A DNA stretch of 64,000 nt from an uncultured Planctomycetota bacterium (GTDB lineage: Bacteria; Planctomycetota; Planctomycetia; Isosphaerales; Isosphaeraceae), in assembly GCA_963737655.1 (NCBI GenBank), contig CAVTTN010000002.1, positions 5,312,001 through 5,376,000 on the forward strand. Direction: 5' to 3'. Positions 49,372 to 64,000 of this stretch are shown here, piece after piece. Both the position numbers and the translations under genes were made by a program. Within the stretch, counting starts at the first letter, position 1. Each line of letters begins with the position of its first letter. A model generated the notes under the pieces. It was not told where the DNA came from and searched no databases. It saw only the letters and a list, made by a program, of their open reading frames with translations.

Positions 49372-52300
49372 CTACTCCCGGCTCACGGCCCTCGAGGCGA
49401 GGGCCAGGAGCTTCCCGGCGCGGTCGGGGTGCCTGGGGAGGAGCCGGAGGTAGACCAGGGTGATCGAGGCCAGCGTGTCGGGGCGGTCCGCGGCGAGTTC
49501 GGTGGCGCGTTCGAGGTCGGCCAGGGCCTGGTCGTCCTTGCCGAGCCGGGCGAGGGCCGAGGCGCGGCCGAGGATCGCCGAGGGGTCGTCGGGGTCGATC
49601 GCCACGACCCGGTTCCACTCGGCCAGGGCTTCTCGGGGCCGTCCCAGGCCGTCCAGGGCGAGGGCCCGGGGGCGGTGAAGCCGGTTCGATCCGCCGGTCT
49701 GGAACGCGCGATCGATCCCGGCGAGGGCCTCCGCGGCCCGGCCCTCGTCCAGGTCGATCTCGGCGCGGAGGCCCAGCAACCTCGGGTCGTCGGGTTCCAG
49801 GGCGAGCCCCCGGGCGACGTCGGCCGAGGCGCCGGCGTGGTCGCCTCGCTCGCGGCGGACCCTCGCGCGGATCATCAACGACCGGGCCGAGTTCGGGTTG
49901 GCCTCGACGGCCCGGCTCGCCTCGGTCTCGGCCGAGGGATCGCGCAGGGCGGCGAGGATCACGGCCCGGGTCGCCTCGGCGGCGTTGCCCCGACCGCGGA
50001 GCCTCTCGGCCGCGACCCGGAGGTCGGCCCTCAGAGGGCCCGCCCGGCCCGGGAGGCGGCGGAGGTCGGCCGGGTCGTCGAAGCTCAGCGAGTCCACCGC
50101 CCCGATCGCCAGCAACGCCCGGTCGTGGAGCCTCCGCCGACGGGGGGTCGGGTCGAGTCGGAGAGCCTCCGCCGAGTCGCTCTCGGCCGGGCCCGGCTGG
50201 TTCAGGGCCAGGAACGCCAGGGCCCGGAGCGTCCGGGCCTCGACGTCCCGGGGCGAACGCTCCAGGACGCAGCCCAGGTCCGACATCGCCGCCTCGGGAT
50301 GCCCCGACCGCAACGCCAGGTGGGCCCGGCCCAGGCGGGGCAGAGGGTCGGCCGGGTCGGCCCGGATCAGGGCGTCGTAGGCCGCTCGGGCGTCGGCCTC
50401 CCGGCCCGAATCGGCGTCGAGCTTCGCCCGGTTCAGACGCGCCGCCAACGCGTAATTGCCGGCCCCGGACGAACTCAAGACCGCGTCATAGGCCGCACGG
50501 GCCCCGCTGGTGTCCCCCAGCGATTGCAGGACCCGTCCCAGCTCCAACTGGGCCGCCACGAATTCGCCCTCGGCGTTCTCCAACGCCCGCAAGTACTCCT
50601 CCCTGCGCGGCCCCAATCGCCTTTTTTGGCGAAAAGCCAGCCCCGATGGTAGCGGGCCGAGGGATGACCCGGGCGGAGCTCGACGGCCGCCGTGAAGTGC
50701 TCCAGGGCCTTGTCGAACCAGCCCGGATCGGTCCGGCCCGCCTGGAATTCCTGGTAGGCAACGTCGAATTCGATCCAGAAGACGCCCACGGCCAGCCCGG
50801 CGGCGCGGTCGAGCCAGCCCACGGCCCGCCTCGGGTCGCCGCGATCGACCAGGAGGCGAATCCGGCCCCACTGGTAGCACGGCCAGGCCTCGGCGATCGA
50901 GGAGGCCGGCGGCGGGGCGATCTCCCGGAGCGTCCGGCCGTTCTGGCGGGCCTGGGCGAACGTTTTCAAGGCGAGCCAGGGGCCTTCGGGCCGGGCGAAC
51001 CTCAACGCCTTGTCGCAGAGGTCCGCCGCCCGGCCCGCCGAGTCGCGATCGCCCGAGCCGGCGAGGGCCAGGGCCTTGAGGAAGAGCAATTCGGTGACGT
51101 CGCCGATCAACCGATCGCGACGCTTCTTGTCCAGGGTCGCCAGGTCCGGCCGACCGGTCCAGTCGTCGCTCTCCAGGACGAAGAACGGGGCGAGGGCCTC
51201 CTCCAGCGAGGGCCCCGGGTCCGGCCGGTCGGCGTCGAACCCCAGGAGCCGGAATCGGAGCGCCTCGGAGGCGCCGAAAAACGTCTCGACGTCTTTCAAG
51301 AGGGCCGAGCTCTGCTCGGCGGCCCGGCGGCGGTGCCGGGCCCGCCTCCCCTCGGCGGCCAGGGCCGGGACGTCCTCGGCCAGCGCCTCGGCCGTGGCGA
51401 AGTGCTCGGCGGCCAGGTCGTACCGTTCCGCCTTCTCGGCCGCGTCCCCCTCGACGATCTGCTCGCGGATCGTCCCGCGTTGATGCTCCAGGTTCACCCG
51501 GTTGTTCATCCAGAGCGAGCCCGTGGTGGCCACGGCGATCATGACCGAGGCGGCCACGGCGAGCTCGACCTTCTGGCGACGGAGCCAGCCCAGGACCCGC
51601 CGGGCCCGGGGTCCCGGGCGAACGGCAACGGCGCATCATCGGCCACGGCCTGGAGATCGGCCGCGAGTTCCCCGGCGTTGGCATAGCGGTCGTCCGGCGC
51701 AGGCGCCAGGCACCGGGCCACGACCACATCCAGGGCCGGCGGGGCCTCGGGGAACGCCTCGCGGAGCCGAGGAGGCCGGAGACGGCGATCCTCGGCCGCC
51801 CTCAGGAGGACTTCCCGGACCGACCTCCCGGACGGCATCGGCCCGAACGGCCGTTCCCCCATCGCCTCGAACAGGACCACGCCCAGGGCATAGAGATCCG
51901 ACCGGGCATCGACCGCCTCGGGCCGTCCTTCGGCCAGGGCGTCGAGGTGCTCCGGCGACATGTAGGCGACCGTCCCGCCCAGGGTCGTCGGCGCGGCCTC
52001 GGGGTCGTCTCCCAGGGGTTCGTGGGCGAGGTTGAAGTCCAGGAGCATCGGCATGCCGTCGCCGGTCACCAGGACGTTGCTCGGCTTGATGTCGCGATGG
52101 AGGACGCCCCGATCGTGGGCATGCTGGAGCGCCTCGGCCAGCCGGGCGCCCCACCAGGCGATCGCTCGGGCATAGGGCCGGGCGCCCAGGGCCTGACGCC
52201 CCGCCGGCCGGGACGAGACCGAGGGGCCGTCGCGGTCCAGGCGGTCCAGGGCCGCGACGAGCTCCGAGCCCGATCGGGCCGTCTTCACCGCCGGATCGGC

Positions 52301-53034
52301 AAGGATGTGCGCGAGCGTGACCCTGCCGAAATAGGGCATGCAGAGCAGGTGCAGGCCCGTGGCCGGGTCGATCCCGTAGGAGTGGACTGGCACGATATGC
52401 GTATGTTGCAACCGAGCCAGGGTTTGCGGCTCCCGAGACCCGGCCCTCGCCACCTTCAACGCCACCGGGCGATCGGCCAGTTGCCGCTCCCGGGCCCGGA
52501 AGACCCGGGCGAATCCGCCCCGGCCGAGCTCGTCTTCCAGGTGGAAGCCGGCAATGGTTTGCCCAACTTCCGGGAACGGCACGTCGGGTACCGCCGAGCC
52601 GCCTCCCGGGATGTGCGAGGCCGTCGAGCTCGGCCCCGAGCCGATGAGCTCGTGGATCTCCAGGACCCTTCGGAGCGACGCCGAGACGTCCGGGAACCGC
52701 TTGAGGAACCCGCCGAGCGAGGGGGCCTCGCCGCGCTCCTCGCGCAGGCAGAATTCTTCGTAAATCAGGGCGACGAAGGCATCTTCGGCGAGTCCCGGGA
52801 TCGCCTCGCGATACCATTCGGCCGGGGTCCGGTCGCCGCTGTCCCAGCGGAGGGCCAGGTCGGTGCGGAGGACGGCCAGGAGCTCTCCGGGGGAGGCGTC
52901 TCGGAGGAATTCGCGGACGTCCGGCCGGCTCTTCGCGGGGCACCGCCGCCATTCCGACTCGAACTGGCGGGCCCGGAGGTGGGCGCCGGGGGTCGAGGCC
53001 TCGTCCCAGGACCGGGGGCTCGGAGGACGCTCAT
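49372..53034 (-). CDS. Ser/Thr protein kinase with TM segment and C-terminal TPRs, apparent frameshifts at ~53015, ~51605 and ~50605
   Basis: LGRGGFARV, VALK, HRDIKPSN, DFN, GTVAYMSPE and SDLYALG, then TPR-like repeats in the downstream frames. Confidence 0.85.
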
Positions 53035-53037
53035 CGA

Positions 53038-53661
53038 TCAGCCCTCCAGCTCCGCCTCGGCCCGGCGGCGGAGATCTTCCAGGACGCGCTGGACGGTCCG
53101 CTCGCTGATCCCCAGCCGGTCGCCGATTTCCCGGCTGGAGAGCCCCTGGGCCTTCAATTCGAGCAACTGGCGGCGGTCTTCGGGCAAAAGATCGCGCAGT
53201 CGGCCGAAGACTTCCCGGGCCTCGGCCACCTGACTCGGGGTATCGCCGGTGGCGGCGAGGTCTCGGGGGCGGTCGCCTTCGGCCCAGAGGGGTTCCTCGC
53301 GGTGCATGTCGGCCTTGCGGCTGCCGGCCCGGCGGTACTCGTCGATCACCTTGTTCTTGGCCGCCCGGGCGAGGAAGGCGACGAGGTGCCGCGAGTCCTC
53401 GAACTCCGCCGGCTCGCGGCGGACCTTCCGAAAGAAGCTGCCCCAAACGCTCTGGAGGAAATCCAACGAGTCGAACCGCGACCGCAACAGCCGGGGCAAC
53501 TGGCGGCGGACGACCAGGCGGACCTCGGGCTCGTAGCGGATCAGGAGCTCTCGGGCGGCCTCGTCGTCGCCGTCGGCGATCCGTTGGAGGAACCCGGCGA
53601 GGTCCGGGTCGATCTCATTCTCGCTCTGGCTGCCGTCCGTGGGCAAGTCGCCGACCGGCAT
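53038..53661 (-). CDS. ECF RNA polymerase sigma factor (kinase-associated type)
   Basis: GDDEAARELL, RSRFDSLDFLQSVW and region 4 GLSSREIGDRLGISERTVQR; stop lies 3 nt before the kinase ATG. Confidence 0.9.
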   Translation of the reverse strand: MPVGDLPTDGSQSENEIDPDLAGFLQRIADGDDEAARELLIRYEPEVRLVVRRQLPRLLRSRFDSLDFLQSVWGSFFRKVRREPAEFEDSRHLVAFLARAAKNKVIDEYRRAGSRKADMHREEPLWAEGDRPRDLAATGDTPSQVAEAREVFGRLRDLLPEDRRQLLELKAQGLSSREIGDRLGISERTVQRVLEDLRRRAEAELEG

Positions 53662-53774
53662 GGTCTGGCCTCCTGGCTCGAATCGCGAGGGGCGTCGTCC
53701 GCACCCTCGGAGCCAGATTACCGGCCCCGAGGCCCCCTTGGCAAGCCGTCGGAGGCCGGGAGCCGGCCATTTCG

Positions 53775-53910
53775 TTCTCGGTGGGCTTTCGGCCGGAAGC
53801 CTTTTGGTTGGCACGGGTTCCGTCTTCGGAATCCGTGAGGACTATCCCCCGGATTCCGAAGACGGAACCCGTGCCAACCAAAAGGCTTCGGAAGAATCTT
53901 CCACCGAGAA
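53775..53910. repeat. Long inverted repeat with perfect 40 bp arms (REPIN/MITE-like)
   Basis: 53796-53835 is the exact reverse complement of 53850-53889 (14 nt loop); outer arms TTCTCGGTGG and CCACCGAGAA. Confidence 0.9.
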
Positions 53911-54037
53911 TGGGTCGGCCCTGGAGGCCGGGAGCCGGGGCGTTTCTATCGCGACGGAGGGTCCCTCGGACACGTCTTGGGTGGCCTGCTGACGAGGACG
54001 TCAGCAGGCCGCGCGACAATGCGAGAGGGACAGGCCA

Positions 54038-55030
54038 CTAACCGGCCGTCACGCGGTTTCGGCCGTCCTGCTTGGACTGATACAGGGCCCGGTCGGCCTC
54101 GGCGATCAGGCCTTCGGGCGAGGCGGTCTCCGGCCCCACGGTGGCCACGCCGAAGCTCGCGGTGATCGGCCGGGCCAGGCCGTCGAGGTCGGCCACGGCC
54201 TGGCGGAGCCTCTGGGCCACGGCCACGGCCTCGGCGAGACCGGCGCCGGGGAGGATCACGGCGAATTCCTCGCCACCGAAGCGGGTGACGGCGTCGGCCT
54301 TGCGGGCGCCGTCGCTCAGGGCCTTCGCCGCGGCCTTCAGGGCGAGGTCCCCGGCGGAGTGGCCGAACTCGTCGTTGAGCCTCTTGAAGTGGTCCAGGTC
54401 CACCAGGATCAGCGACAGCCGCTCGCCTCGACGCTTCGACCGGACGAAGGCCGAGGCCAGCGCCTGGTCGAACGCCCGACGGTTGCCCACGCCGGTCAGG
54501 CCGTCTACCGCCGCGCTGCGGGCCAGCGAGGCATTGGCCGCCTCCAGCTCGTCATTGAGGCGATGGGCCAGGGCGAGCTGCTCGGCCAGGAGGTCCTCCA
54601 GGATCTTACGCTCGGTGATGTCCTCGTGGGAGACGACGACCCGCCTCGGGCCGTCCCAACGCAGGGGGGTCATCCGGGCGAGGAACCAGTGGAGGCCGTC
54701 GGAACACGCGCAGGGGTATTCCACCTGCCCGGCCTGGGACCGTCCGTCGAGGATCGCGCGGATACTCTCGGCGATCGATTGAGCGTAAACGCGATCATCG
54801 CCGTGTGTTGCGTCGCAGACATCGAGGTAATTGCAACCGAGGAAACGGTCGTCCCGCTCGTCCGGCACGTCGCGATCGAACTCGCGCCAGGCCCGGTTCA
54901 CGGCGACGATCGTCCCGGTCTCGTCGAGCAGGACGACCTCGGCCATCAGCGAATCGAGCAGGGCCTGGGCCAGCCTGGCCCCCCCTCCCCGGCCTTTCCG
55001 AGTCCTCCTGGCCATCGCTCCATTCATCAC
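54038..55030 (-). CDS. PAS-GGDEF diguanylate cyclase
   Basis: PAS-like N-terminus; DGLTGVGNRR, DLDHFKRLND and RFGGEEF. Confidence 0.93.
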   Translation of the reverse strand: MMNGAMARRTRKGRGGGARLAQALLDSLMAEVVLLDETGTIVAVNRAWREFDRDVPDERDDRFLGCNYLDVCDATHGDDRVYAQSIAESIRAILDGRSQAGQVEYPCACSDGLHWFLARMTPLRWDGPRRVVVSHEDITERKILEDLLAEQLALAHRLNDELEAANASLARSAAVDGLTGVGNRRAFDQALASAFVRSKRRGERLSLILVDLDHFKRLNDEFGHSAGDLALKAAAKALSDGARKADAVTRFGGEEFAVILPGAGLAEAVAVAQRLRQAVADLDGLARPITASFGVATVGPETASPEGLIAEADRALYQSKQDGRNRVTAG

Positions 55031-55219: not shown

Positions 55220-55786
55220 TCAGGCGGTCTCGTGCTTGCCCAGGGGGGACTCGGGGGCCAGGCGGTCGCGGCCGTGGGCTTCCTGGTCGTCGTCGTGCTC
55301 GTCGGCGGTCATCTCGTCCATGACGGGGTTGACCCCCTCGCCCATCTCCTCGACGAGCTTGCCGCCGAGCCACGCGGTATAGAGCGAGAGCCCGCCTCCG
55401 GCCATCGCCAGGAGCCGCGAGGCCGCGCTCGCCGGCCGCCCTCGCTGGTGGTCGCGCACCCGCATCACGTAGCTCGTGACGAACAGGGTGCCGACGACCG
55501 AGTTGCCCAGCGCATGGGTGGTGGCAACCTCGTGGCTCGGGCGGTCTACGGGGATCTTGCTGTAATCGTAAAGCCCCGTGACGGCGGACCCCGCGGCGCC
55601 CACCAGCCCCACGGCCAGGCTCAGCCGGGCCGCGTCGTCGTATTTCTTCTCGCCGGTGATCATCGCCAGGCCGTCGCAGACGTTGCTGAACGACCAGGCC
55701 CCCAGAGGCAACGCCACGATCGCCGGATGCGGGCTGTGGCCGAGCAAGTCGTAAGTCTTTTTCACCAAAAGCGAGATCGGGTCCAT
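55220..55786 (-). CDS. DUF2231 family membrane protein
   Basis: GHSPHPAIVALPLG, VTGLYD, HALGN and WLGGKLV. Confidence 0.82.
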   Translation of the reverse strand: MDPISLLVKKTYDLLGHSPHPAIVALPLGAWSFSNVCDGLAMITGEKKYDDAARLSLAVGLVGAAGSAVTGLYDYSKIPVDRPSHEVATTHALGNSVVGTLFVTSYVMRVRDHQRGRPASAASRLLAMAGGGLSLYTAWLGGKLVEEMGEGVNPVMDEMTADEHDDDQEAHGRDRLAPESPLGKHETA

Positions 55787-55800
55787 CGAAGAAGCTCTCC

Positions 55801-55905
55801 GTGGGGTGCATGAAATGCCTTGTGGGGTCCGCTATTGCGGACCTCTTCGCCTCTCATCGAATCGGATCGAATCGGATCGAAGAGGTCCGCAATAGCGGAC
55901 CCTAC
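55801..55905. repeat. Composite REP cluster: one family A copy plus a family B pair
   Basis: GTGGGGTGCATGAAATGC, then GTGGGGTCCGCTATTGCGGACCTCTTCG...CGAAGAGGTCCGCAATAGCGGACCCTAC. Confidence 0.85.
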
Positions 55906-55969
55906 GGGAATCGAAGGTCCCCGGAGGGCGCGCTCCGCACTCCCAGGCCGTCCCAATCCCCGGCTCAAG

Positions 55970-56362
55970 TCACTGCGGCCCGCGAGGGGTGCCGGTCTTG
56001 ATCGTGTCGGGTGCCTTGGTGGCTCCGGCGGCCGAGGCGCCGGTGTCGTCGGCCGGGGGATTGGCGCGGACGGAATCGGGGTTGCCTCCCTTGGGCAACT
56101 GGGGCTGACCGCCCTCGGTGCCTCCGCCGTTGCCTCCGGGTCCGGAGTCTCGGTGATTGTCGCCGGCCTGGCCCAGGGCCTCGCCGCGACCGGACGTCGA
56201 GGGGAGGGGCAGGTCGTCGCGGACGGCCGGCTTCTCGGTGCCTCCGGGCGCGGGGCCGTTGGTGAACCCCGCGTTCGTCCCGACCGGCCGATCGCACCCG
56301 GCCAGTCCGGCCAGCCCGAGGGTCGCCGTCAGCCCCAGGGAAAGACGCCAGTTCCTCATCAT
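55970..56362 (-). CDS. Small low-complexity lipoprotein
   Basis: MMRNWRLSLGLTATLGLAGLAGC (lipobox); Gly/Pro-rich mature region. Confidence 0.72.
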   Translation of the reverse strand: MMRNWRLSLGLTATLGLAGLAGCDRPVGTNAGFTNGPAPGGTEKPAVRDDLPLPSTSGRGEALGQAGDNHRDSGPGGNGGGTEGGQPQLPKGGNPDSVRANPPADDTGASAAGATKAPDTIKTGTPRGPQ

Positions 56363-56448
56363 CGGAGTCCTCGCGCGGGGCATCCCGCGAACAGCAAAAA
56401 CGCGCCACTTTTCCAAGGCCGAAACGGCCCCGATGTTCGGGAGAAGCC

Positions 56449-56479
56449 GCGAACGCCGTGCCGTCGGCATGCCGGATGC
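56449..56479. promoter_or_regulatory. Back-to-back divergent sigma-54-like promoters
   Basis: Minus strand CGGCACGGCGTTCGC (56449-56463) and plus strand CGGCATGCCGGATGC (56465-56479). Confidence 0.55.
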
Positions 56480-56549
56480 GACGAAGACGCGCCCCGAGGC
56501 GCCTCGATCCCCGCACGGTGCGCGACCGACCCGAGAGAAGGCCGATCCG

Positions 56550-57533
56550 ATGCCGACCTCCGACAGATTCCCCCCGCTCCGCCTCAAAGCGGCCCTGTCC
56601 CTGGGCGGGCTCTCGCCGAGAGAGGTCGTCTCGCGGACCTGGAAGAAGCTCAACGAGCACGAGATCCTCACCCGGGCCTCGGCCATCTCGTTCTACGCCA
56701 TGCTGGCGTTCGTCCCTTTGCTCGCCCTGATCCTCACGGTGCTCGTCCAGCTCCTGCCGGACCTCTCCGGCCTGACCGGCCGGACCACCGGGCTGGCGAA
56801 CCTGACCGTCGATCAGTTCCGGGCCACCCTCCGCGAGGCGCTGCCTCAAGAGGCCTACGGCGTGGTCGAGGACCAGATCAAAAGGATGCAGAAGGAGCCG
56901 CCGTTCGGCCTGCTCTCCTTCGGCCTGCTGATCGCCCTGTGGACCTCCACCAGCCTGTTCGTGACCGTGATGGACTCCATGAACCGGGTCTGCGGGGTGG
57001 AGGAGACCCGGTCGTTCCTCCGCCAGAGGGTCGTGGCCCTGATCATGACGCTGATCCAGTCGGCCATCCTGATCGGCGCGTTGATCGTGGTGGTCGCCGG
57101 GCCGGAGATCCTCCACTGGGTCGGCATCCACGGCCATTCGGCGACCCTGGCGCTGATCGTCCAGTGGTCGGTGGTCGCCCTGATGGTCCTCCTGAGCTTC
57201 GCCCTGGCGTTCTACGTCGGGCCCGACGCCGACCAGAAATGGGAGTGGATCACCCCGGGCAGCTTCGTCGGGACGCTCGCCTTCCTCGGCTTCACGGTCC
57301 TGTTCCGCATCTACATCCAGAAGTTCGCCCACTACGACCGCGCCTATGGATCGCTCGGGGGCGTGATGGCGCTGATGCTCTGGCTCTGGGTCACCAGCGT
57401 GATCCTGCTGACGGCCGGGCAGGTGAATCAGGTGATCGAGGACGCGTCTCCCCTGGGCAAGACGTTCGGCCAGAAGACCGACAAGACCGACGCGCCGGAC
57501 TTCTCCGAGATGACTCCGCAGCCGTTGAAGTGA
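56550..57533 (+). CDS. yihY: YihY/BrkB family membrane protein
   Basis: ASAISFYAMLAFVP, FYVGPD, WITPGS and YDRAYGSLGGVMALMLWLW. Confidence 0.9.
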   Translation: MPTSDRFPPLRLKAALSLGGLSPREVVSRTWKKLNEHEILTRASAISFYAMLAFVPLLALILTVLVQLLPDLSGLTGRTTGLANLTVDQFRATLREALPQEAYGVVEDQIKRMQKEPPFGLLSFGLLIALWTSTSLFVTVMDSMNRVCGVEETRSFLRQRVVALIMTLIQSAILIGALIVVVAGPEILHWVGIHGHSATLALIVQWSVVALMVLLSFALAFYVGPDADQKWEWITPGSFVGTLAFLGFTVLFRIYIQKFAHYDRAYGSLGGVMALMLWLWVTSVILLTAGQVNQVIEDASPLGKTFGQKTDKTDAPDFSEMTPQPLK

Positions 57534-57535
57534 GG

Positions 57536-58173
57536 TCAGAAGTCCGGGAACGTCATCGCGCCGAGGACCAGGCCCTGGCCAAAGACCTGTTCGATCCGTC
57601 CCGAGGGGACCACGTCGCGATCGGCGAAGAGCCAGCAGAGCCCGCGGCCGGGGTCGGAGGCGAGCACGCGGAACCCGCCGAAGACCTCGGCCCCGAGATC
57701 GGCAGGTTCGCGCGTCCCCTCGTCGCCAGGTCCTTCGCCATCAGCCCGAGGATCGACGGCAAGAGCTCCAGGGCCGCCGGGCCGTGATAGACCAGGCGAT
57801 GGGCGGGGTGGTCCGTCAGGAGGAACGGAGGCTCCGGGTATCGCCAGGGGGCCTCGCTGATCCAGTACCACCGGGGACCGTTCCAGACGTGGCCTCGGAG
57901 GATGTCCGGGTCGCCGACCGACCGCGTCTCGGTGGCGGCGATCGCGCGGAAGCTCCCGAGGGCGTCCTCGTCGGCCATCTCCAGGTCGTCGGGATCAACG
58001 AGATCGAACAGGTCGAATTCCACGGCCCTGGGGCCGCACCGGAAGGGCCTCCCCGGAGGGCCGAGGACATCCATCACCATCTGAAGCGTGCCGGGCCGGG
58101 TCTCCATCGTCGTCCCCCTCGGGAGAACGATCTCTCGATCTCCGAGGATACCATCGGGAACGGCGATCGGCAC
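57536..58173 (-). CDS. Hypothetical protein, possible frameshift at ~57725
   Basis: Coding-like frame starts at GTG 58173 immediately after the GTPase stop and switches frame near 57705-57725. Confidence 0.45.
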
Positions 58174-58175
58174 GA

Positions 58176-59695
58176 TCAGGATCGCCCCGCCCCGGCCTTG
58201 CGGTTGGCCCGGGTCTCCTGGAGGTTGGACCAGAGCTTGCGGCCCTGGCGGCCGACCTGGCCGATCAGCCTCCGGGCCTTGGAGCGCGTCGAGGTCTCGT
58301 ACATGTGACGGAGGACGGCCGTCTTCTCGGCGCGGTCGAGCAACGGCGCGAGCGCCGGCAGGAATTTCTCGGCCAGGCCCGCCGGCGGATCGACCTCGAC
58401 GACCCCCGCCACCGCCTCGGGCAAGGCCGAGCGGACCGCCGCCAGCTTCGCCCGGGCGATCGCCTCGCGGTTCACCGCGCCGTCCATCGGCAAGCGAGCC
58501 ATCCCGACGACCACGGCCAGGATCGGCGGCCGATCCAGGGTGGGGACCTTGGCGAAATAGGCGTCGATGGCGTCGATCAGGCGGATCTCGGGCGTGAGGT
58601 CGTCCCGGGAGGCGTCCACGACCAGCAGGATCAAATCGGCGTCGCGGGCGTCGTCGGCGGCCTCCCGGCGCGTGGCGCGGTCCCGGGCCGACTCGGGGAC
58701 GTGCACGGTATAGCCGGGGATCTCGACCCACTGGGCCGTCTTCAGGAGGTCGGCGAGCCCGTCGTCGAAGCCGTCGGCCGAGAGCCGGCCCTTGACGACG
58801 TTCAGGTGGTGGTCGCAGGCGGCCTTCGCCGCCTCGATCAGGGCGGTCTTGCCCACGTCCCGGGCCCCGTCAGCGCGATCCTCAGGGGGGACGGCCCGGC
58901 GACCTCCTTCGGCCGGGCCCCGGGCCGGGCCTTCCTCGTGAGCTTGCGATAGCCCTCCGCCCCGATCGCCAAACGGCCGCTGTAGAGCTCGATCAGGTGG
59001 ATTCCCAATCGGTTCACGTAGGCGCGGAAGAACCAGCGCAACACGTTGTGCTGCATGCTCTTCCACGCCGGCTGCGTCAGCAGTTTCGTGGTCCCGAGGC
59101 GGACCAATCCGGTCGTCGGCTGGAACAGGGGCAGCAGGTAACCATAGACCTCGTTCGCCTTGGAGATCCAACCGGCGGCCTGCACGGCCTTCTTCCAGTG
59201 GCTGGCCGTGACCATGTCGCCGCCGGGCACCTCCCGGCAGAGCGCCTCCAGGTCCTCGGCCGCGAGCTCCAGGGCCGTGAGGATCTGGACCACCGGCAGA
59301 TGCTCCACCGGGTTGGTCGAGAGCGGGTGATAATGGGCCGCGAGCCTCGCGACCAGCTTCTTGCCGGTCTCGACGTAGACATCCACGTTCGTCAACGATT
59401 CCATCGGCAAGGTTTCGGACGTTTCCGCTTCCTGCTCGACGAGGTCCCAGGCCAGCTTGTCGTGGTTGGAGAACGTCCGGGGGGAGTCCCAGTCGATCGG
59501 AGGCAAGACGGCCTCGCGATCTCTCGTCCAGCGGACGGCGAGGAAGTACGCGACGGTCCCCAGCGCCGCCCAGATCGCGAAGCCATAGAAGCCCCACCCA
59601 TGATCCTTCAGCCACAACGCCCCGAGGCCGATGTACGCGGCCATCGGGCCGACGAAGAGGACCAGGAGGACCCAGACTCGCCAGCTTCGGACCAC
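58176..59695 (-). CDS. Membrane-anchored P-loop GTPase-domain protein, apparent frameshift at ~58863
   Basis: Two N-terminal TM segments; restoring one base gives Walker A GxRDVGKT; EIPG and ADLILLVVDA follow. Confidence 0.7.
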
Positions 59696-59707
59696 GGGAC
59701 ACTCCCT

Positions 59708-59839
59708 ATGGGTGCATGGAACGCACCCATCCTGAGGCGGCCTCGGGGCCGCCATCGGCAGATCAGATCATTCGGAAGCCGACGCCGACTATACCATCGG
59801 AGGCCGGCCGCTTGCGTTGGTGCATTTCATGCACCCTAC
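59708..59839. repeat. REP pair (family A, one degenerate arm)
   Basis: ATGGGTGCATGGAACGCACCC ... GGTGCATTTCATGCACCCTAC. Confidence 0.75.
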
Positions 59840-59935
59840 GGGACAGGAGCCATCTCCCCAAACGCTTCGGGGCCGCCCCGAATCGGATTCGGAGCGGCCC
59901 CGAGGGGACGTCTCTGGCCGTCGGTCGCCGACCGA

Positions 59936-60349
59936 TCAATGGCCGGGCATGTGTCGGGCGATCGATTCGGGGACGTGCATGTGACGGATGCGGTCGCGGA
60001 CCGACTCCGGCAGGTTACGGAGCGAGTCGGGCACGTAGCGATCGTACCAGGACTCCTCCTCGCGACGGGTCAGCAGCACCGTCAGCAACACGCCCAGGCC
60101 GAAGCCGACGCCGAACCCCATGAGGACCGAGGGCGCGGGATTGCGGGCGATCATCCCCTCGGCCTGGCGGTAGCCGTGGGTGATCCCCTCGCGGGCCGCC
60201 CCGTAGCCGTCTCGGACGCGCTCGCCGACCTGCGAGGCGCCGTCCTGGATCTTCTGGCCGGCTTCGTGGATGCGGTCGCCCAGGCCCTGGCCCTGGCCCT
60301 GCCCGGCGCCGCCGTTGTGCCGCTCCTGGCCTTGCTTTCCGGTCGGCAT
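59936..60349 (-). CDS. Small ElaB/DUF883-like membrane-anchored protein
   Basis: Amphipathic repeats, then IARNPAPSVLMGFGVGFGLGVLL. Confidence 0.7.
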   Translation of the reverse strand: MPTGKQGQERHNGGAGQGQGQGLGDRIHEAGQKIQDGASQVGERVRDGYGAAREGITHGYRQAEGMIARNPAPSVLMGFGVGFGLGVLLTVLLTRREEESWYDRYVPDSLRNLPESVRDRIRHMHVPESIARHMPGH

Positions 60350-60458
60350 GATCGCCTCCCTTACTCGTAAAACGATCTGAGGAACTCGCGGAACTCCCGA
60401 CGGGCCGCCCCCCGAGCGAATCGGCGGGCACCCGTCACGACTCTCGACCCAGGAGGAA

Positions 60459-60473
60459 GCAAGGCCCGTGCCG
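60459..60473 (-). promoter_or_regulatory. Sigma-54 -24/-12 promoter
   Basis: CGGCACGGGCCTTGC(T), about 110 bp upstream of ATG 60349. Confidence 0.7.
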
Positions 60474-60653
60474 ACGACCCGTCCCATCCCGGCCCGCCCG
60501 ACTCGCCTCCGAAAAAAATCATTTGGCGATCGGGCCGAAATCTCCCGTACTCTGAGACGAAGACTGTGTGCCGGGCGCCCGGGACACGGGACTCGCCGGC
60601 CCGGCAACGGGTCGGTCGGGGCCTCGCCGGAAAAAGGCCGACTCGCCGGACTC

Positions 60654-60668
60654 TGGCATGAAGGGTGC
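60654..60668 (+). promoter_or_regulatory. Sigma-54 -24/-12 promoter
   Basis: TGGCATGAAGGGTGC, about 97 bp upstream of ATG 60765. Confidence 0.55.
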
Positions 60669-60764
60669 CCCGTCGCTATAACTGTCGTGGGGCGAGGACC
60701 GACCCATCGGGGGATCGGCCCGCCTGCGGACCATCTGCACCATCGAAACCGAGGAATCGTCACC

Positions 60765-60941
60765 ATGAAGCGCTCGCTGATCCTGTCGCTGGCCCTGGCC
60801 GTCATCGCTCCCATCGGCCTCATCGGCTGCGGCGAGGAGACCGGCACCACCACCAAGACCACCACCACGACCCCGGCCGGCAAGGTCACCGAGACCTCCT
60901 CCGACAAGGTCGAGAAGACCGGCGACATGAAGGACAAGTGA
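60765..60941 (+). CDS. Small Thr-rich lipoprotein (58 aa)
   Basis: GAGGA RBS; MKRSLILSLALAVIAPIGLIGC lipobox. Confidence 0.8.
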   Translation: MKRSLILSLALAVIAPIGLIGCGEETGTTTKTTTTTPAGKVTETSSDKVEKTGDMKDK

Positions 60942-60990
60942 GCGCCTTCCCCCGGGACGCTCACTAGCCTTTTCGATCCGATCGTTTCGA

Positions 60991-61027
60991 CGCCCTCCGG
61001 GAAGTTTTCCCGGGGGGTGTTTTTTTT
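60991..61027 (+). terminator. Rho-independent terminator
   Basis: Stem CGCCCTCCGGGAA/TTCCCGGGGGGTG followed by a run of about 9 T. Confidence 0.7.
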
Positions 61028-61074
61028 CGCCTCGGGACCCCACTCTCGAGAAAATCACCGAACCGCACGAGGAT

Positions 61075-61090
61075 TGGCACTCCCCTTGCA
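61075..61090 (+). promoter_or_regulatory. Sigma-54 -24/-12 promoter
   Basis: TGGCACTCCCCTTGCA (near consensus), about 73 bp upstream of csbD. Confidence 0.78.
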
Positions 61091-61162
61091 GTGCATTCAC
61101 GTCCCATGTGACACCGGCTCCGAGGCCGGGAGGATCGGTTCGAGAAGACCCGGAGAACGACG

Positions 61163-61585
61163 ATGATCAACGCTCAGGAACTTCAGGGGCAGTGGAACCA
61201 GCTCAAGGGCAAGGTCAAGGAGAAGTGGGGCCAGCTCTCCGACGATGACCTGAACATCAGCGGCGGGAACTTCGACCAGCTCGTCGGCAAGATCCAGCAG
61301 AGGACCGGCGAGGGCCGCGAGGCCATCGAGAAGTTCTTCAACACGCTGACCGCCCAGGGCGGCTCGGCCGTCTCCCAGGCCGCCGAGAAGGCCCGCGACT
61401 TCGCCCAGCACGCCGGCGAACGCCTCCGCGACTCCTACGGCTCCGCCACCGACTTCGCCCGGGACCGCTACGAGATGGCCGAGGACCTGGTCCGCCACCG
61501 GCCCGGCCAGTCCGTCGCCGCGGCCTTCGGCCTCGGCCTGGTGGTCGGCCTGGTGGTCGGCATCGCCGTCCGAAGCAGCCGATAA
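61163..61585 (+). CDS. csbD: CsbD family protein with ElaB-like C-terminal TM anchor
   Basis: LQGQWNQLKGKVKEKWGQLSDDDL...DQLVGKIQQRTG; C-terminal RHRPGQSVAAAFGLGLVVG. Confidence 0.88.
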   Translation: MINAQELQGQWNQLKGKVKEKWGQLSDDDLNISGGNFDQLVGKIQQRTGEGREAIEKFFNTLTAQGGSAVSQAAEKARDFAQHAGERLRDSYGSATDFARDRYEMAEDLVRHRPGQSVAAAFGLGLVVGLVVGIAVRSSR

Positions 61586-61606
61586 CCTTCGCCTTCGTTC
61601 GCTTTC

Positions 61607-61663
61607 GTAGGGCAGGCCTTGGCCTGCCGGACCGTGGGGACGGCAGGCCAAGGCCTGCCCTAC
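61607..61663. repeat. REP pair (family C)
   Basis: GTAGGGCAGGCCTTGGCCTGCC (61607-61628) and inverted copy (61642-61663). Confidence 0.88.
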
Positions 61664-61768
61664 GAAGGATAAAACCAGGCAAATCACCGTCGATCCGCAG
61701 CACGTGAACCGCGTGTCCGTCCTTCGTCCGCCTTCACTTCCCCTCACCTCTGGGATAGGAGCATCGCC

Positions 61769-61945
61769 ATGCTTCGCTGGGCCCTGACGTTCGCGATCCT
61801 CGCCCTCGTGGCCGGTCTCCTCGGCTTCGGCGGCCTTGCCGGCGACTTCTCGTACATCGCCAAGATCCTCCTGTTCGTCTTCGTGGTCCTGTTCGTCGTC
61901 GCCCTGATCGCCGGCCGCCGCGTCCTGGGCGGGCCAACGGTCTAG
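61769..61945 (+). CDS. DUF1328 (UPF0391/YtjA-like) small membrane protein
   Basis: Hand translation: [66 protein letters not shown]; not in the ORF track. Confidence 0.9.
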
Positions 61946-61982
61946 GGTCGGTTTATACCACCCGAACACTCAACGCGCCTCG

Positions 61983-62030
61983 GAACGGGGGGCGGGCACC
62001 GGCGAGTCTTGCCGGGTCCGCCCCCCGTTT
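61983..62030. terminator. GC-rich hairpin between convergent genes
   Basis: AACGGGGGGCGG...CCGCCCCCCGTT. Confidence 0.55.
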
Positions 62031-62053
62031 CGCGTTGCGATGCGGAGGGCCGT

Positions 62054-62758
62054 TCACCCCCCCATCTTCCACAATTTCTCCAGGACCGCGAAGGTCTCCG
62101 GGTCGTAAGCCTTGAGCTCGGCCCGGACGAACGGATAAAAATCGTTCGTCCCGAAGAACGCCTCGGTCGCCTCGGCGAAGAATTCCATCGGGTCGGTCAG
62201 GGCATACGCCTTCTCGTCCCGGCCGTTGATCCGCAGGACCGATTGATAGCTCCCCGCCGCCTTCGCCCTCTCGAACGCCCTCCTCACGTCCTTGTTCTCG
62301 AACCCCCCGTCCAGCTTCTGGTGATGGTAGCCGTGGGCCAGCTCGTGGAGGACCATCCACGGCTGATCGATCGTCCACGACAGGAAGTTCTTGGCGTTGG
62401 CGATCTCGACGCACCGGGCCTTCTCCTCGCTCATCCCGTGATCGCGGAGCCAGCCGGCGTCGGGGTGGTACGCCATGCATGGATGATGAGGCTCGGCCTC
62501 CTCGACCCAGATCGTGATGGTGCGCAACTTACCGACAGCATCGGAAGGCAGCCTCCGAACGATCTGCGAAAGCTGGACGCGGAGGAGGTCCAGGGTCTTG
62601 GCGGCGAGCTCGGGCCGATCGCGGAGGAATGCCTCGTTCACCCGGACGGGCCAGCCCTCGATGTCGCGATCGGCGTAGGTCTCCGCCCCTTTCGCGGCCC
62701 CGGCGACGATCGCCGGCAACAGGGCCAGGAGGCGTAACTTCCGTAATGCTAGTGACAT
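62054..62758 (-). CDS. Secreted zinc metallopeptidase (HExxH)
   Basis: Signal peptide; VLHELAHGYH, YALTDPMEFFAEATEAFF and NDFYPF. Confidence 0.82.
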   Translation of the reverse strand: MSLALRKLRLLALLPAIVAGAAKGAETYADRDIEGWPVRVNEAFLRDRPELAAKTLDLLRVQLSQIVRRLPSDAVGKLRTITIWVEEAEPHHPCMAYHPDAGWLRDHGMSEEKARCVEIANAKNFLSWTIDQPWMVLHELAHGYHHQKLDGGFENKDVRRAFERAKAAGSYQSVLRINGRDEKAYALTDPMEFFAEATEAFFGTNDFYPFVRAELKAYDPETFAVLEKLWKMGG

Positions 62759-62797
62759 GGGTCAAGCTCCGGGGGGCGGATTCCGCACGGGCTCCGA

Positions 62798-62812
62798 TGG
62801 CCCGTGAATTGC
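62798..62812 (+). promoter_or_regulatory. Sigma-54-like promoter
   Basis: TGGCCCGTGAATTGC, about 120 bp upstream of GTG 62932. Confidence 0.6.
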
Positions 62813-62931
62813 CTTCGGAGATACCAGAACCGAAGCCGCCGGGCGAGGGAGTTCCCGGCCCCCGAGTCCCCGGAGCCATCCCGGGCGGGCACACCCCGCC
62901 GAAATTTTCGCTTTTTTCGGAGATTAGCGCA

Positions 62932-64000
62932 GTGAATCGTTGGAAATCCCGCCCGACCGTACTCGCCGCCCTCGCGGTGCTGCTGACCCTGTCCTCCCCC
63001 CGAGAACTTCTTGCCCAGATCCCCGGGCTTCCGGCGCCTCCGGCCGCCAAGGGGTCTGCGACGGCCCCGAAGCCCGATTCGGGCCTCGACACGCCCAAGG
63101 CCAAGGTCGCCACGACCTCGGGCCCGATCGCCCTCCGCGAGACCGTCTCGGACTCCGCCCTCAAGACGACCCTGGAACGGCTCCTGGCCCGTTATCCGGG
63201 CGTCCGCAACGTGAATGTGGCGGTGGACAACGGGTTTGTGACGCTCGAAGGGCAGGTGGACGACGACGAGACCCACGACGAGATCACCGACTTCGTCCGC
63301 CGGGTCGAGGGGGTCCGCCTGGTCCTGAACCTGATGCTGACCGACGACGAGGTGATGTCCGGCACCCAGCTTGCCCGGCGCGAGCTCAGCGTCTTCACCA
63401 CCTTCTTCGCCCGCCGATGGTTGCTGATGCTGGTGAGCCTGGTCGTGGTCCTGGCCGGGGTGCTCCTGGCCCGGCTGTTCGCCCGCTATTCCGAAACGCT
63501 GCTGGCCCCATTCGTCCCCAACCCCCTGCTCCGCTCGGTCGTCGGCTCGGTGCTTGGCGGGGTGATCGTCCTGGGCGGCCTGATCCTGGCGCTGTCGATC
63601 TTGAGGCTGACTCATGCGGTGCTGTCGATCGTGGGGCTGGCGAGCATCGTCGGGCTGGCCGTGGGGTTCGCGTTCAAGGACATCACGGAGAACTTCATCG
63701 CGTCGGTCCTGCTGGGCGTCCGTCGGCCGTTCCGGGTGGGAGACGCCATCCAGGTGGCCGGCCAGTCCGGCGTGGTCCAGTCGCTGAACACCCGGGCGAC
63801 CATGCTCGTGACGGCCGAGGGGAAGCACGTCCGGATCCCGAACGTGGTGATCTACAAGGAGATCCTCGTCAACTCCTCGACCAGCTCGCGGACCCGGGGG
63901 ACGTTCGACCTGGTGATCCCGGCGGAGGCCTCGACCTCGGCGGCCCTGGAGGCGATCGCCTCGGCCCTCCGTTCGCAAGACGGCATCCTCGCCGACCCGT
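62932..64000 (+). CDS. BON domain-MscS mechanosensitive channel fusion, 3' end runs off the window
   Basis: Hand translation: signal peptide; BON-like VNVAVDNGFVTLEGQV...VEGVRLV; MscS-like GLAVGFAFKDITENFIASVLLGVRRPFRVGDAI and VRIPN. Confidence 0.87.
   Translation, partial: MNRWKSRPTVLAALAVLLTLSSPRELLAQIPGLPAPPAAKGSATAPKPDSGLDTPKAKVATTSGPIALRETVSDSALKTTLERLLARYPGVRNVNVAVDNGFVTLEGQVDDDETHDEITDFVRRVEGVRLVLNLMLTDDEVMSGTQLARRELSVFTTFFARRWLLMLVSLVVVLAGVLLARLFARYSETLLAPFVPNPLLRSVVGSVLGGVIVLGGLILALSILRLTHAVLSIVGLASIVGLAVGFAFKDITENFIASVLLGVRRPFRVGDAIQVAGQSGVVQSLNTRATMLVTAEGKHVRIPNVVIYKEILVNSSTSSRTRGTFDLVIPAEASTSAALEAIASALRSQDGILADP

Follow-up and report, generated by a model that had tools for sequence, protein, structure and literature searches.

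The window analysed here, a stretch of 64,000 nucleotides from an uncultured planctomycete of the family Isosphaeraceae (G000:C2:5312001-5376000; genome of 7.63 Mb, 88% complete), carries six motifs that are read as sigma-54 (RpoN) promoters of a general-stress island, which would be switched on by an NtrC-type activator encoded in the island of relatives. This reading of sites and activator taken together is fairly probable. It is supported directly by the motifs themselves, their statistics and conservation, the presence of rpoN, the domain composition of the activator, and the linkage of the activator gene to the island. Since such motifs stand before stress genes and the activator gene lies beside these genes in many relatives, the general stress response likely proceeds via sigma-54 and not via the sigma factors familiar in this role.

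Sigma-54-type promoters in the window

Genes were called with our own dicodon model, for which reason start codons are approximate; this yielded 5923 genes, of which 4569 are preceded by 40 bp or more of non-coding DNA. An earlier note on this DNA had claimed six motifs with GG-N10-GC spacing, and all six 15-mers are located where it placed them: CGGCACGGCGTTCGC (promoter 1, 56449-56463, minus strand), CGGCATGCCGGATGC (promoter 2, 56465-56479, plus strand), CGGCACGGGCCTTGC (promoter 3, 60459-60473, minus strand), TGGCATGAAGGGTGC (promoter 4, 60654-60668, plus strand), TGGCACTCCCCTTGC (promoter 5, 61075-61089, plus strand), and TGGCCCGTGAATTGC (promoter 6, 62798-62812, plus strand). All are intergenic and each is directed at a gene. 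The distances from motif to start codon are 86, 70, 109, 96, 73, and 119 bp, respectively, the last counted to the GTG at 62932, in agreement with the placement of about 70 to 120 bp upstream that had been described.

A position weight matrix (PWM) that started from the sigma-54 consensus and took all its training sites from outside the window assigns 12.7, 14.4, 17.7, 9.4, 16.6, and 16.7 bits to promoters 1 to 6. Promoter 4 is weak here and promoter 5 has the full consensus; the predicted start sites lie at about 56437, 56491, 60447, 60680, 61101, and 62824. In the part of the window from 55220 to 64000, five of 11 upstream regions reach at least 12 bits, a number that 1000 dinucleotide shuffles, which never gave more than one, did not approach and that is far above the genome rate of 173/4569 (binomial p = 3e-5). 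Promoters 1 and 2 (56449-56479) are divergent and stand back to back, with a gap of 1 bp here and in the relative L122 and of 10 bp in L128; two polymerases on them would probably either block one another or become active jointly.

The earlier note had also proposed a genome scan with an RpoN matrix and had named a motif frequency at background level as a ground for rejection. Bare GG-N10-GC is indeed at background and uninformative, since 204 occurrences were seen between 55220 and 64000, where the genome rate predicts 197, whereas the fuller -24/-12 form is well above chance. Whole-genome counts were discarded as a test because the coding background swamps the signal (YGGCAC-N-TTGC, 33 at N5 versus 32 at N4). 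On the sense strand of the 4569 upstream regions, YGGCAY-N-TTGC, counted, like the gap data that follow, without the trained matrix, occurs 50 times at spacing 10 compared to 0-3 times at each of N6-9 and N11-14. In 2370 tandem gaps, YGGCAY-N10-TTGC was found 29 times in sense and never in antisense orientation, and it occurs 18 times in 712 divergent gaps and not once in 531 convergent gaps. With the matrix, 173 genes have a site of at least 12 bits versus 28-39 for four spacer-shifted controls, which leaves roughly 140 real sites. An excess of GG-N13-GC is likely due to the GTAG-type palindromic repeat of the kind at 61606-61667 (302 matches to its core).

Sigma-54 melts DNA just after the GC element. 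The ten bases following the GC contain 53-55% A/T in 88 promoters from relatives, compared to about 37% in the flanks, and 39% in this genome versus 24-33% in controls, which is a smaller effect. The rpoN gene, whose absence would have spoken against the earlier proposal, is present and intact: it encodes three Pfam domains, scores 431 with TIGR02395 (cut-off 277), contains the RpoN box ARRTVTKYR, and is itself preceded by a motif of 14.1 bits. Judged from these sequence features, the six motifs are very probably functional sigma-54 promoters.

Conservation in relatives and outgroups

The motif was followed in 20 regions from 19 relatives (L122-L141), chosen for holding the activator, and in the csbD loci of larger genome sets; none of the counts includes the six csbD loci of G252. 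As kin are not independent, the ortholog counts are descriptive only. In the 20 regions, a motif of at least 11 bits precedes 2/2 genes for the yihY-side lipoprotein (promoter 1), 2/5 yihY genes (promoter 2), 6/6 ElaB-like genes (promoter 3), 9/12 homologs of the small lipoprotein gene (promoter 4), and 9/18 csbD genes (promoter 5). The yihY orthologs score 11.3, 13.1, and 9.5 bits, and two further yihY genes sit behind an upstream island gene; among the csbD orthologs of the island, nine have scores of 15.5-19.4 bits. For promoter 6, 19 of 28 BON-MscS orthologs reach 11 bits, with 0-2 in spacer controls and three in antisense. Each of the six motifs therefore recurs before orthologs, as the earlier note had proposed to check. 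In the same regions, the motif is also found before genes for CBS proteins (10/15), DUF892-like proteins (7/9), and members of cluster c9 (8/8), before 4/11 DUF1328 genes and 0/3 DUF2231 genes, and before none of the housekeeping neighbours (0/5, 0/3, and 0/3). The DNA flanking the motifs is not conserved among the relatives.

Among the best 29 csbD loci in 60 genomes of the family, the motif lies within 250 bp at 12 loci, and a reach of 800 bp brings the number to 20 (spacer controls 0-3); the eight gained at 800 bp sit at apparent operon heads, and nine of the 29 are without a motif at 12 bits. In other families of the phylum, the motif precedes csbD within 250 bp at 11/28 loci and within 800 bp at 14/28 (controls 0-1). 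It was also found at 6/20 csbD loci in the phylum of G212, which is labelled Myxococcota (controls 0-1), and the wiring may therefore extend beyond one phylum. In outgroups, none of 11 gammaproteobacterial and two Bacteroidota csbD loci has the motif.

A split island and its candidate activator

In relatives such as L122, L123, L125, and L128, the genes of the window and a block containing the activator form one island. Its order, in which not every gene is present in every genome, begins with yihY, lipoprotein, DUF2231, DUF892-like, kinase, ElaB-like, activator, CBS, and in some cases YegS-like genes and continues with YqjE-like holin, ElaB-like, c9, GTPase-like, ElaB-like, lipoprotein, csbD, and DUF1328 genes. 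The window holds one half of this island in split form, and the other half, with the activator and histidine kinase genes, lies 74 kb off; going by the gene order, the central island block appears to have moved in this genome. The spot that the activator block has in relatives is taken here by an open reading frame (ORF) without a Pfam match between yihY and the GTPase-like gene (57553-58107, minus strand), which may mark the rearrangement point.

The candidate activator gene (C2:5449601-5450993) lies 74 kb past the window, and four genes with the motif flank it. The genome has 19 matches to the activator domain, 11 of which are strong and full-length. Intact orthologs in L122, L123, and L131 consist of a REC domain, a Sigma54_activat AAA domain, and a Fis-type helix-turn-helix (HTH_8), all above the Pfam cut-off, and in relatives of the closer subclade a gene for a HisKA-HATPase kinase adjoins that of the activator. 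Orthologs (E 1e-110) are encoded in 34 of the 60 family genomes. In 17 of these 34, the gene lies within 25 kb of csbD, which corresponds to 17 of the 19 genomes in which both share a contig; of the remainder, 14 have csbD on a different contig and one is without csbD. The earlier note had suggested RpoN together with an activator encoded elsewhere. Spacing, orientation, and conservation of the promoters and the presence of rpoN support the first part well, and there is now a concrete candidate for the second, but the activator gene belongs to the same island in relatives.

In a quick version of a tree, the island activators form a clade (SH-like approximate likelihood ratio test 96) of two diverged subclades, beside the paralogs C2:1897682 and C2:7344722, which are conserved family-wide and have the same unusual LSRR-S recognition helix as the island activators. 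The GAFTGA contact loop reads G[AS]FTSA in 11 of 12 aligned island activators and G[AS]FTGA in some members of the clade. For NorR, a serine at this position of the loop has been reported to cause activity without signal, and the same paper cites an NtrC variant, G219C, whose open complexes form only when enhancer DNA is absent (PMC2941729). GAFTSA was rejected as diagnostic of the island activator: some members of the clade lack it, and it is common in Bacteroidota, where 0/120 such loci are near csbD. With this query, none of 150 genomes from other families of the phylum yielded an ortholog of the island activator, the best ten candidates being scored in each, and a link to AlgB of Pseudomonas was looked for and not found. 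A further activator gene, C2:6234781-6235839 (L353), encodes no N-terminal regulatory domain in any frame and has a PspF-like layout; its product is possibly a constitutive or trans-regulated activator.

Search for enhancers

An expectation-maximization motif search with a Markov background upstream of 88 promoters gave scores of 12-55 versus 23-67 for matched controls and recovered the promoter itself at 489 as positive control; degenerate or intragenic sites could escape such a search. The consensus of integration host factor (IHF) was not found in four promoter regions. The A/T tracts that the earlier note had taken for possible bending sites are unsupported in this role; the T8 that precedes csbD belongs, as its tail, to a terminator-like hairpin. 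TGCGCA and GCA-N6-TGC at first looked enriched, but this genome, in which TGCGCA is four times rarer, had served as background. A GATC/TCGA motif reflects composition bias. Against matched intergenic DNA, TGCGCA was found 15 times in 19 kb of promoter-bearing regions (L122-L141) versus five times in 37 kb, at scattered positions, and is a weak lead.

Upstream of the promoter, only 3-31 non-coding bases are available in 6/11 cases for CBS genes and 20-50 in 5/7 cases for DUF892-like genes. This short upstream DNA and the back-to-back promoter pair at yihY would fit an activation without a specific enhancer. The strongly conserved HTH of the activator argues against it, and enhancer independence is for this reason only a hypothesis here.

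The genome-wide promoter set and other sigma factors

A Pfam scan of 97 of the 143 genes with a motif of at least 13 bits left 47 without a match and 50 named, about 14 of which are stress-type by our own classification. These encode BON, S30AE, DUF2382 (twice), DUF3072, KGG, GH77, YflT, topoisomerase IB, and SRPBCC-YgaP as well as CBS, DUF4142, a TreZ-type enzyme, and Transgly_assoc. The genes for YflT, DUF2382, and BON are known as stress genes, and of the marker families of the RpoS and SigB regulons, CsbD, YtjA, KGG, YflT, BON, and MscS are present. Motif-bearing genes were also seen for DnaK, GroES, an ORF that looks GroEL-like by eye, and RpoN (G000:C2:386060-387976, 3807422-3807715, 5002042-5002200, and 4733581-4734999). 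The CIRCE (controlling inverted repeat of chaperone expression) consensus was not found, and heat-shock chaperones may also be under putative sigma-54 control. Strong motifs furthermore precede genes for proteins with an LE.LE.R-like N-terminal leader (G000:C2:2413916, 2526210, 3484809, 5678562, 6598409, 6656774, and 7008874), which suggests a sigma-54-controlled set of secreted proteins. The stress regulon of the earlier note is accordingly right in that stress genes carry the motif and too narrow in scope, as they are part of a set of about 140 promoters that includes those of chaperone genes, of csrA, amt, and rpoN, and of genes for secreted proteins. Because the stress genes are only part of the motif set, sigma-54 appears to serve several programmes, the stress set being one. 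No sigma factor of this genome passes the cut-off of the RpoS and SigB NCBIfam models (PhyR, NepR, and EcfG were not searched for); the best SigBFG score is 135.7 with a cut-off of 234.

Proposed mechanism and alternative explanations

According to the proposed mechanism, sigma-54 RNA polymerase would sit as a closed complex on the island promoters. In response to a stress signal, the activator (REC-AAA-HTH; G000:C2:5449601-5450993) would be phosphorylated by the island kinase (HisKA-HATPase) and would then open many promoters together. In the window, these would be the promoters of csbD-DUF1328, the ElaB-like and lipoprotein genes, yihY, and BON-MscS; elsewhere, the targets would be CBS, YqjE-like, DUF892-like, KGG, DUF2382, YflT, and trehalose-type genes. 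The predicted output consists of small membrane proteins, lipoproteins, MscS, and protective enzymes. The role of the activator could also be shared or taken over by the two conserved paralogs that have its recognition helix. Transcription from the sites, induction by stress, the pairing of kinase and activator, and the choice of the cognate activator are what we infer from these data. That the motif set is stress-induced is probable, and for the island activator as main driver the balance tips slightly in favour.

Several observations weigh against this mechanism. The activator copy of this genome is frameshifted in a run of C, probably by an assembly error, since the ortholog from the same genus is open over 487 amino acids and other genes are also broken here. 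A shared enhancer linking the activator to the promoters was not found. The motif set is broader than stress and includes the genes for Amt, CsrA, RpoN, PEP-CTERM proteins, ParA, an amidase, and peptidases, while none of six universal stress protein (Usp) genes and only three of nine BON genes carry it, and neither Ku nor DUF892 was found above threshold in the 88%-complete genome. The genome further encodes three group-2-like sigma-70 paralogs, with best rpoS-model scores of 236-264 (cut-off 378.7). In three genomes with csbD motifs (G019, G006, and G060), the best activator matches are 49-51% paralogs and not orthologs of the island clade. Finally, rpoN was reported, in the part of the study available, to be down-regulated under salt stress in R. 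baltica (PMC2754498).

Some of these points bear on the possibility that the sigma-54 promoters are real and the island activator is a mere neighbour, another of the roughly dozen activators driving them (C2:1897682, C2:7344722, or C2:6234781). It is in keeping with this that genomes without an ortholog of the island clade still have the csbD motif, that the first two of these paralogs share the LSRR-S helix and provide the best matches in the three genomes named above, and that no enhancer joins the island activator to its neighbouring promoters. The linkage of activator and csbD in 17 of 19 informative genomes, which extends over two diverged subclades, and the kinase gene alongside the activator in the closer subclade speak for a functional connection, so that the neighbour explanation, while not negligible, is unlikely.

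It is rather improbable that the sigma-54 set is a programme of the cell envelope or life cycle, with the stress response being run by RpoS-like group-2 or extracytoplasmic function (ECF) sigma factors. Many motif genes encode secreted, lipoprotein, or membrane products, 47/97 are without a Pfam match, and the three RpoS-like paralogs would be at hand for the stress response. ECF factors of R. baltica were induced under all three stresses in the available part of PMC2754498, and the thesis in the title of PMC3162934 links sigma-54 to the cell exterior. A purely external programme is at odds with the motif before genes for cytoplasmic stress markers, namely KGG, YflT, DUF2382, DUF3072, topoisomerase IB, GH77, the TreZ-type enzyme, DnaK, and GroES, and with the weak DUF892-like gene in the island.

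Binding of the motif by some other factor, or a role of sigma-54 only as a repressor or poised holoenzyme, would agree with the failure to find an activator binding site and is very improbable, as the exact 10-base spacing, the strict orientation, the A/T-rich melting region, and the adjacent conserved AAA+ activator are all in line with activation of sigma-54. Matches by chance in GC-rich DNA, to which the background frequency of bare GG-N10-GC and the one weak site of six (9.4 bits) might point, are rejected by the shuffle, spacer-shift, antisense, convergent-gap, and ortholog controls and deserve hardly any credence.

Genes and other elements of the window

The gene labels of the earlier note were largely confirmed, as DUF2231, YihY/BrkB, CsbD, DUF1328, and BON plus MscS pass the Pfam cut-offs, whereas 'ElaB-like' is without Pfam support. 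Promoter 1 faces a lipoprotein-like ORF of 130 amino acids (55970-56362, minus strand) without a Pfam match, whose homologs in L122 and L128 both have the motif. The gene for a DUF2231 membrane protein (55220-55786, minus strand; PF09990, E 2.9e-20) comes after it on the same strand, as in L122 and L128; it has no motif of its own (PWM -3.3) and is likely read through from the lipoprotein promoter. Between the two genes lies a GTAG-type palindromic repeat (55823-55908) with about 49 similar places in the genome, which is outside the regulon. On the other side, promoter 2 precedes the gene for a YihY/BrkB inner-membrane protein (56550-57533, plus strand; PF03631, E 9.6e-61; TIGR00765 above cut-off).

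A conserved island gene (58176-59695, minus strand) encodes a membrane anchor and a weak GTPase-like domain. It is frameshifted here (tblastn matches in two frames) and is a single ORF of 504-525 amino acids in relatives; no family is above cut-off, MMR_HSR1 matching only below it, and the gene, cluster c7, has the motif in 1/11 cases. Another GTAG-type repeat (59817-59845) has about 238 similar places in the genome. The gene behind promoter 3 (59936-60349, minus strand) encodes a small protein with a C-terminal hydrophobic segment; BLAST places it in one cluster with the CsbD fusion protein. A DUF883 profile did not match it at E 0.05 and gave only weak matches in other island genes; the ElaB/YqjD label is a resemblance only.

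Promoter 4 precedes a small lipoprotein-like ORF of 58 amino acids (60765-60941, plus strand; conserved cluster c5), for which a Pfam match is sub-threshold only. Behind it, an intrinsic-terminator-like hairpin with a T tract (60989-61027, plus strand; T8 at 61020 as its tail) ends this gene and explains why an A/T tract is seen upstream of csbD; similar hairpins and T tracts are present in most of the relatives compared. The csbD gene behind promoter 5 (61163-61585, plus strand) encodes a 140-amino-acid CsbD protein (PF05532, E 5.5e-16) with a C-terminal ElaB-like membrane tail (DUF883_C below cut-off). It is followed by the gene for the small membrane protein DUF1328 (YtjA; 61769-61945, plus strand; PF07043, E 1e-13), which has no motif of its own (PWM -7.4), stands directly after csbD in relatives, and is likely co-transcribed with it. 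A GTAG-type repeat between them (61606-61667, about 105 similar places) is again outside the regulon, and expression of DUF2231 and DUF1328 from the island promoters would need read-through across such repeats. Promoter 6 belongs to the gene for a BON-domain MscS mechanosensitive channel (62932-64000, plus strand; PF04972 and PF00924 above cut-off), which continues beyond the window end.

Between DUF1328 and BON-MscS lies an ORF of 234 amino acids (62054-62758, minus strand) without the motif, whose product looks secreted and zinc-metallopeptidase-like (HELAH motif), with both the ATLF and the Peptidase_M90 match being sub-threshold. Left of the island (49372-55030), an ECF sigma factor gene (53038-53814), an adjacent ORF that looks kinase-like by eye, and a PAS-GGDEF gene were observed, none of them with the motif.

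Comparison with known systems

The promoters resemble those of canonical sigma-54 and NtrC-family systems in the YGGCAY-N5-TTGC sequence, the fixed spacing, the A/T-rich melting region, the presence of rpoN, and a REC-AAA-Fis HTH activator beside a histidine kinase. They differ from them in their number of about 140 in one genome, in that no shared enhancer or IHF site was found, and in that for several of them the non-coding DNA upstream is limited to 3-50 bases or another promoter stands 1 bp off; most island activators also combine G[AS]FTSA with an atypical recognition helix. RpoS of enterobacteria, SigB of Bacillus, and EcfG of alphaproteobacteria are sigma-70-family factors under the control of proteolysis or partner switching. 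The RpoS, SigB, and PhyR-NepR-EcfG regulons share with the island the target families CsbD/YjbJ, YtjA/DUF1328, KGG, and mscS, whereas the predicted control here is an ATP-dependent activator acting on sigma-54. As far as the available parts of these studies go, csbD, ytjA, and KGG genes of Salmonella are sigma-S-controlled (PMC5437024), and csbD and mscS of Sphingopyxis are EcfG targets (PMC7083833). Sigma-54 activation without a recognisable enhancer is a feature of Rrp2 in Borrelia and FlgR in Helicobacter (available part of PMC1976401) and of CtcC in Chlamydia; in contrast to FlgR and CtcC, which are without a DNA-binding domain, the island activator keeps a strongly conserved HTH.

In-silico work on the sigma-54 regulon of Planctomycetia was reportedly done by Studholme and Dixon in 2004. 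The earlier note knew of no characterisation of such control in planctomycetes, but it is not entirely unreported. The accessible portion of a recent in-silico survey predicts sigma-54 enrichment of MscS (COG0668), GroEL/GroES/DnaK/IbpA, UspA, and CsrA in Planctomycetia (Carrera-Reyna 2025, PMC12316311); MscS, chaperones, and CsrA agree with this genome, but an enrichment of UspA was not seen here (0/6). Neither 'CsbD' nor 'general stress' occurs in its main text as far as available, although its COG figures and web database may list CsbD-type families; its accessible passages contain no stress island or linked activator, and a search of 11 of its supplements, as available, for six COG numbers gave no matches. 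For R. baltica, a general stress cluster has been noted and rpoN control of a thioredoxin gene suggested in the part of PMC2754498 at hand. Neither a sigma-54-driven general stress regulon, nor this island, nor a named master regulator of the planctomycete general stress response was found in a literature that mostly did not cover subscription journals. New here are the split island, the linked activator and kinase, and their linkage in relatives.

Meaning for planctomycetes

The general stress responses known so far all depend on factors of the sigma-70 family (RpoS, SigB, and EcfG), and a version based on sigma-54 would differ from them. As a tentative extension, planctomycetes and some Myxococcota-labelled genomes might possess a fourth design for a general stress response, in which sigma-54 would act as a global stress sigma factor together with a dedicated clade of NtrC-type activators without specific enhancers; one phosphorylation event would then fire about a hundred pre-loaded promoters. 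The sigma-54 version names a specific kinase, an activator, and a list of promoters, so that the question becomes testable, and should an enhancer prove dispensable, current ideas on the global action of sigma-54 would also have to be broadened.

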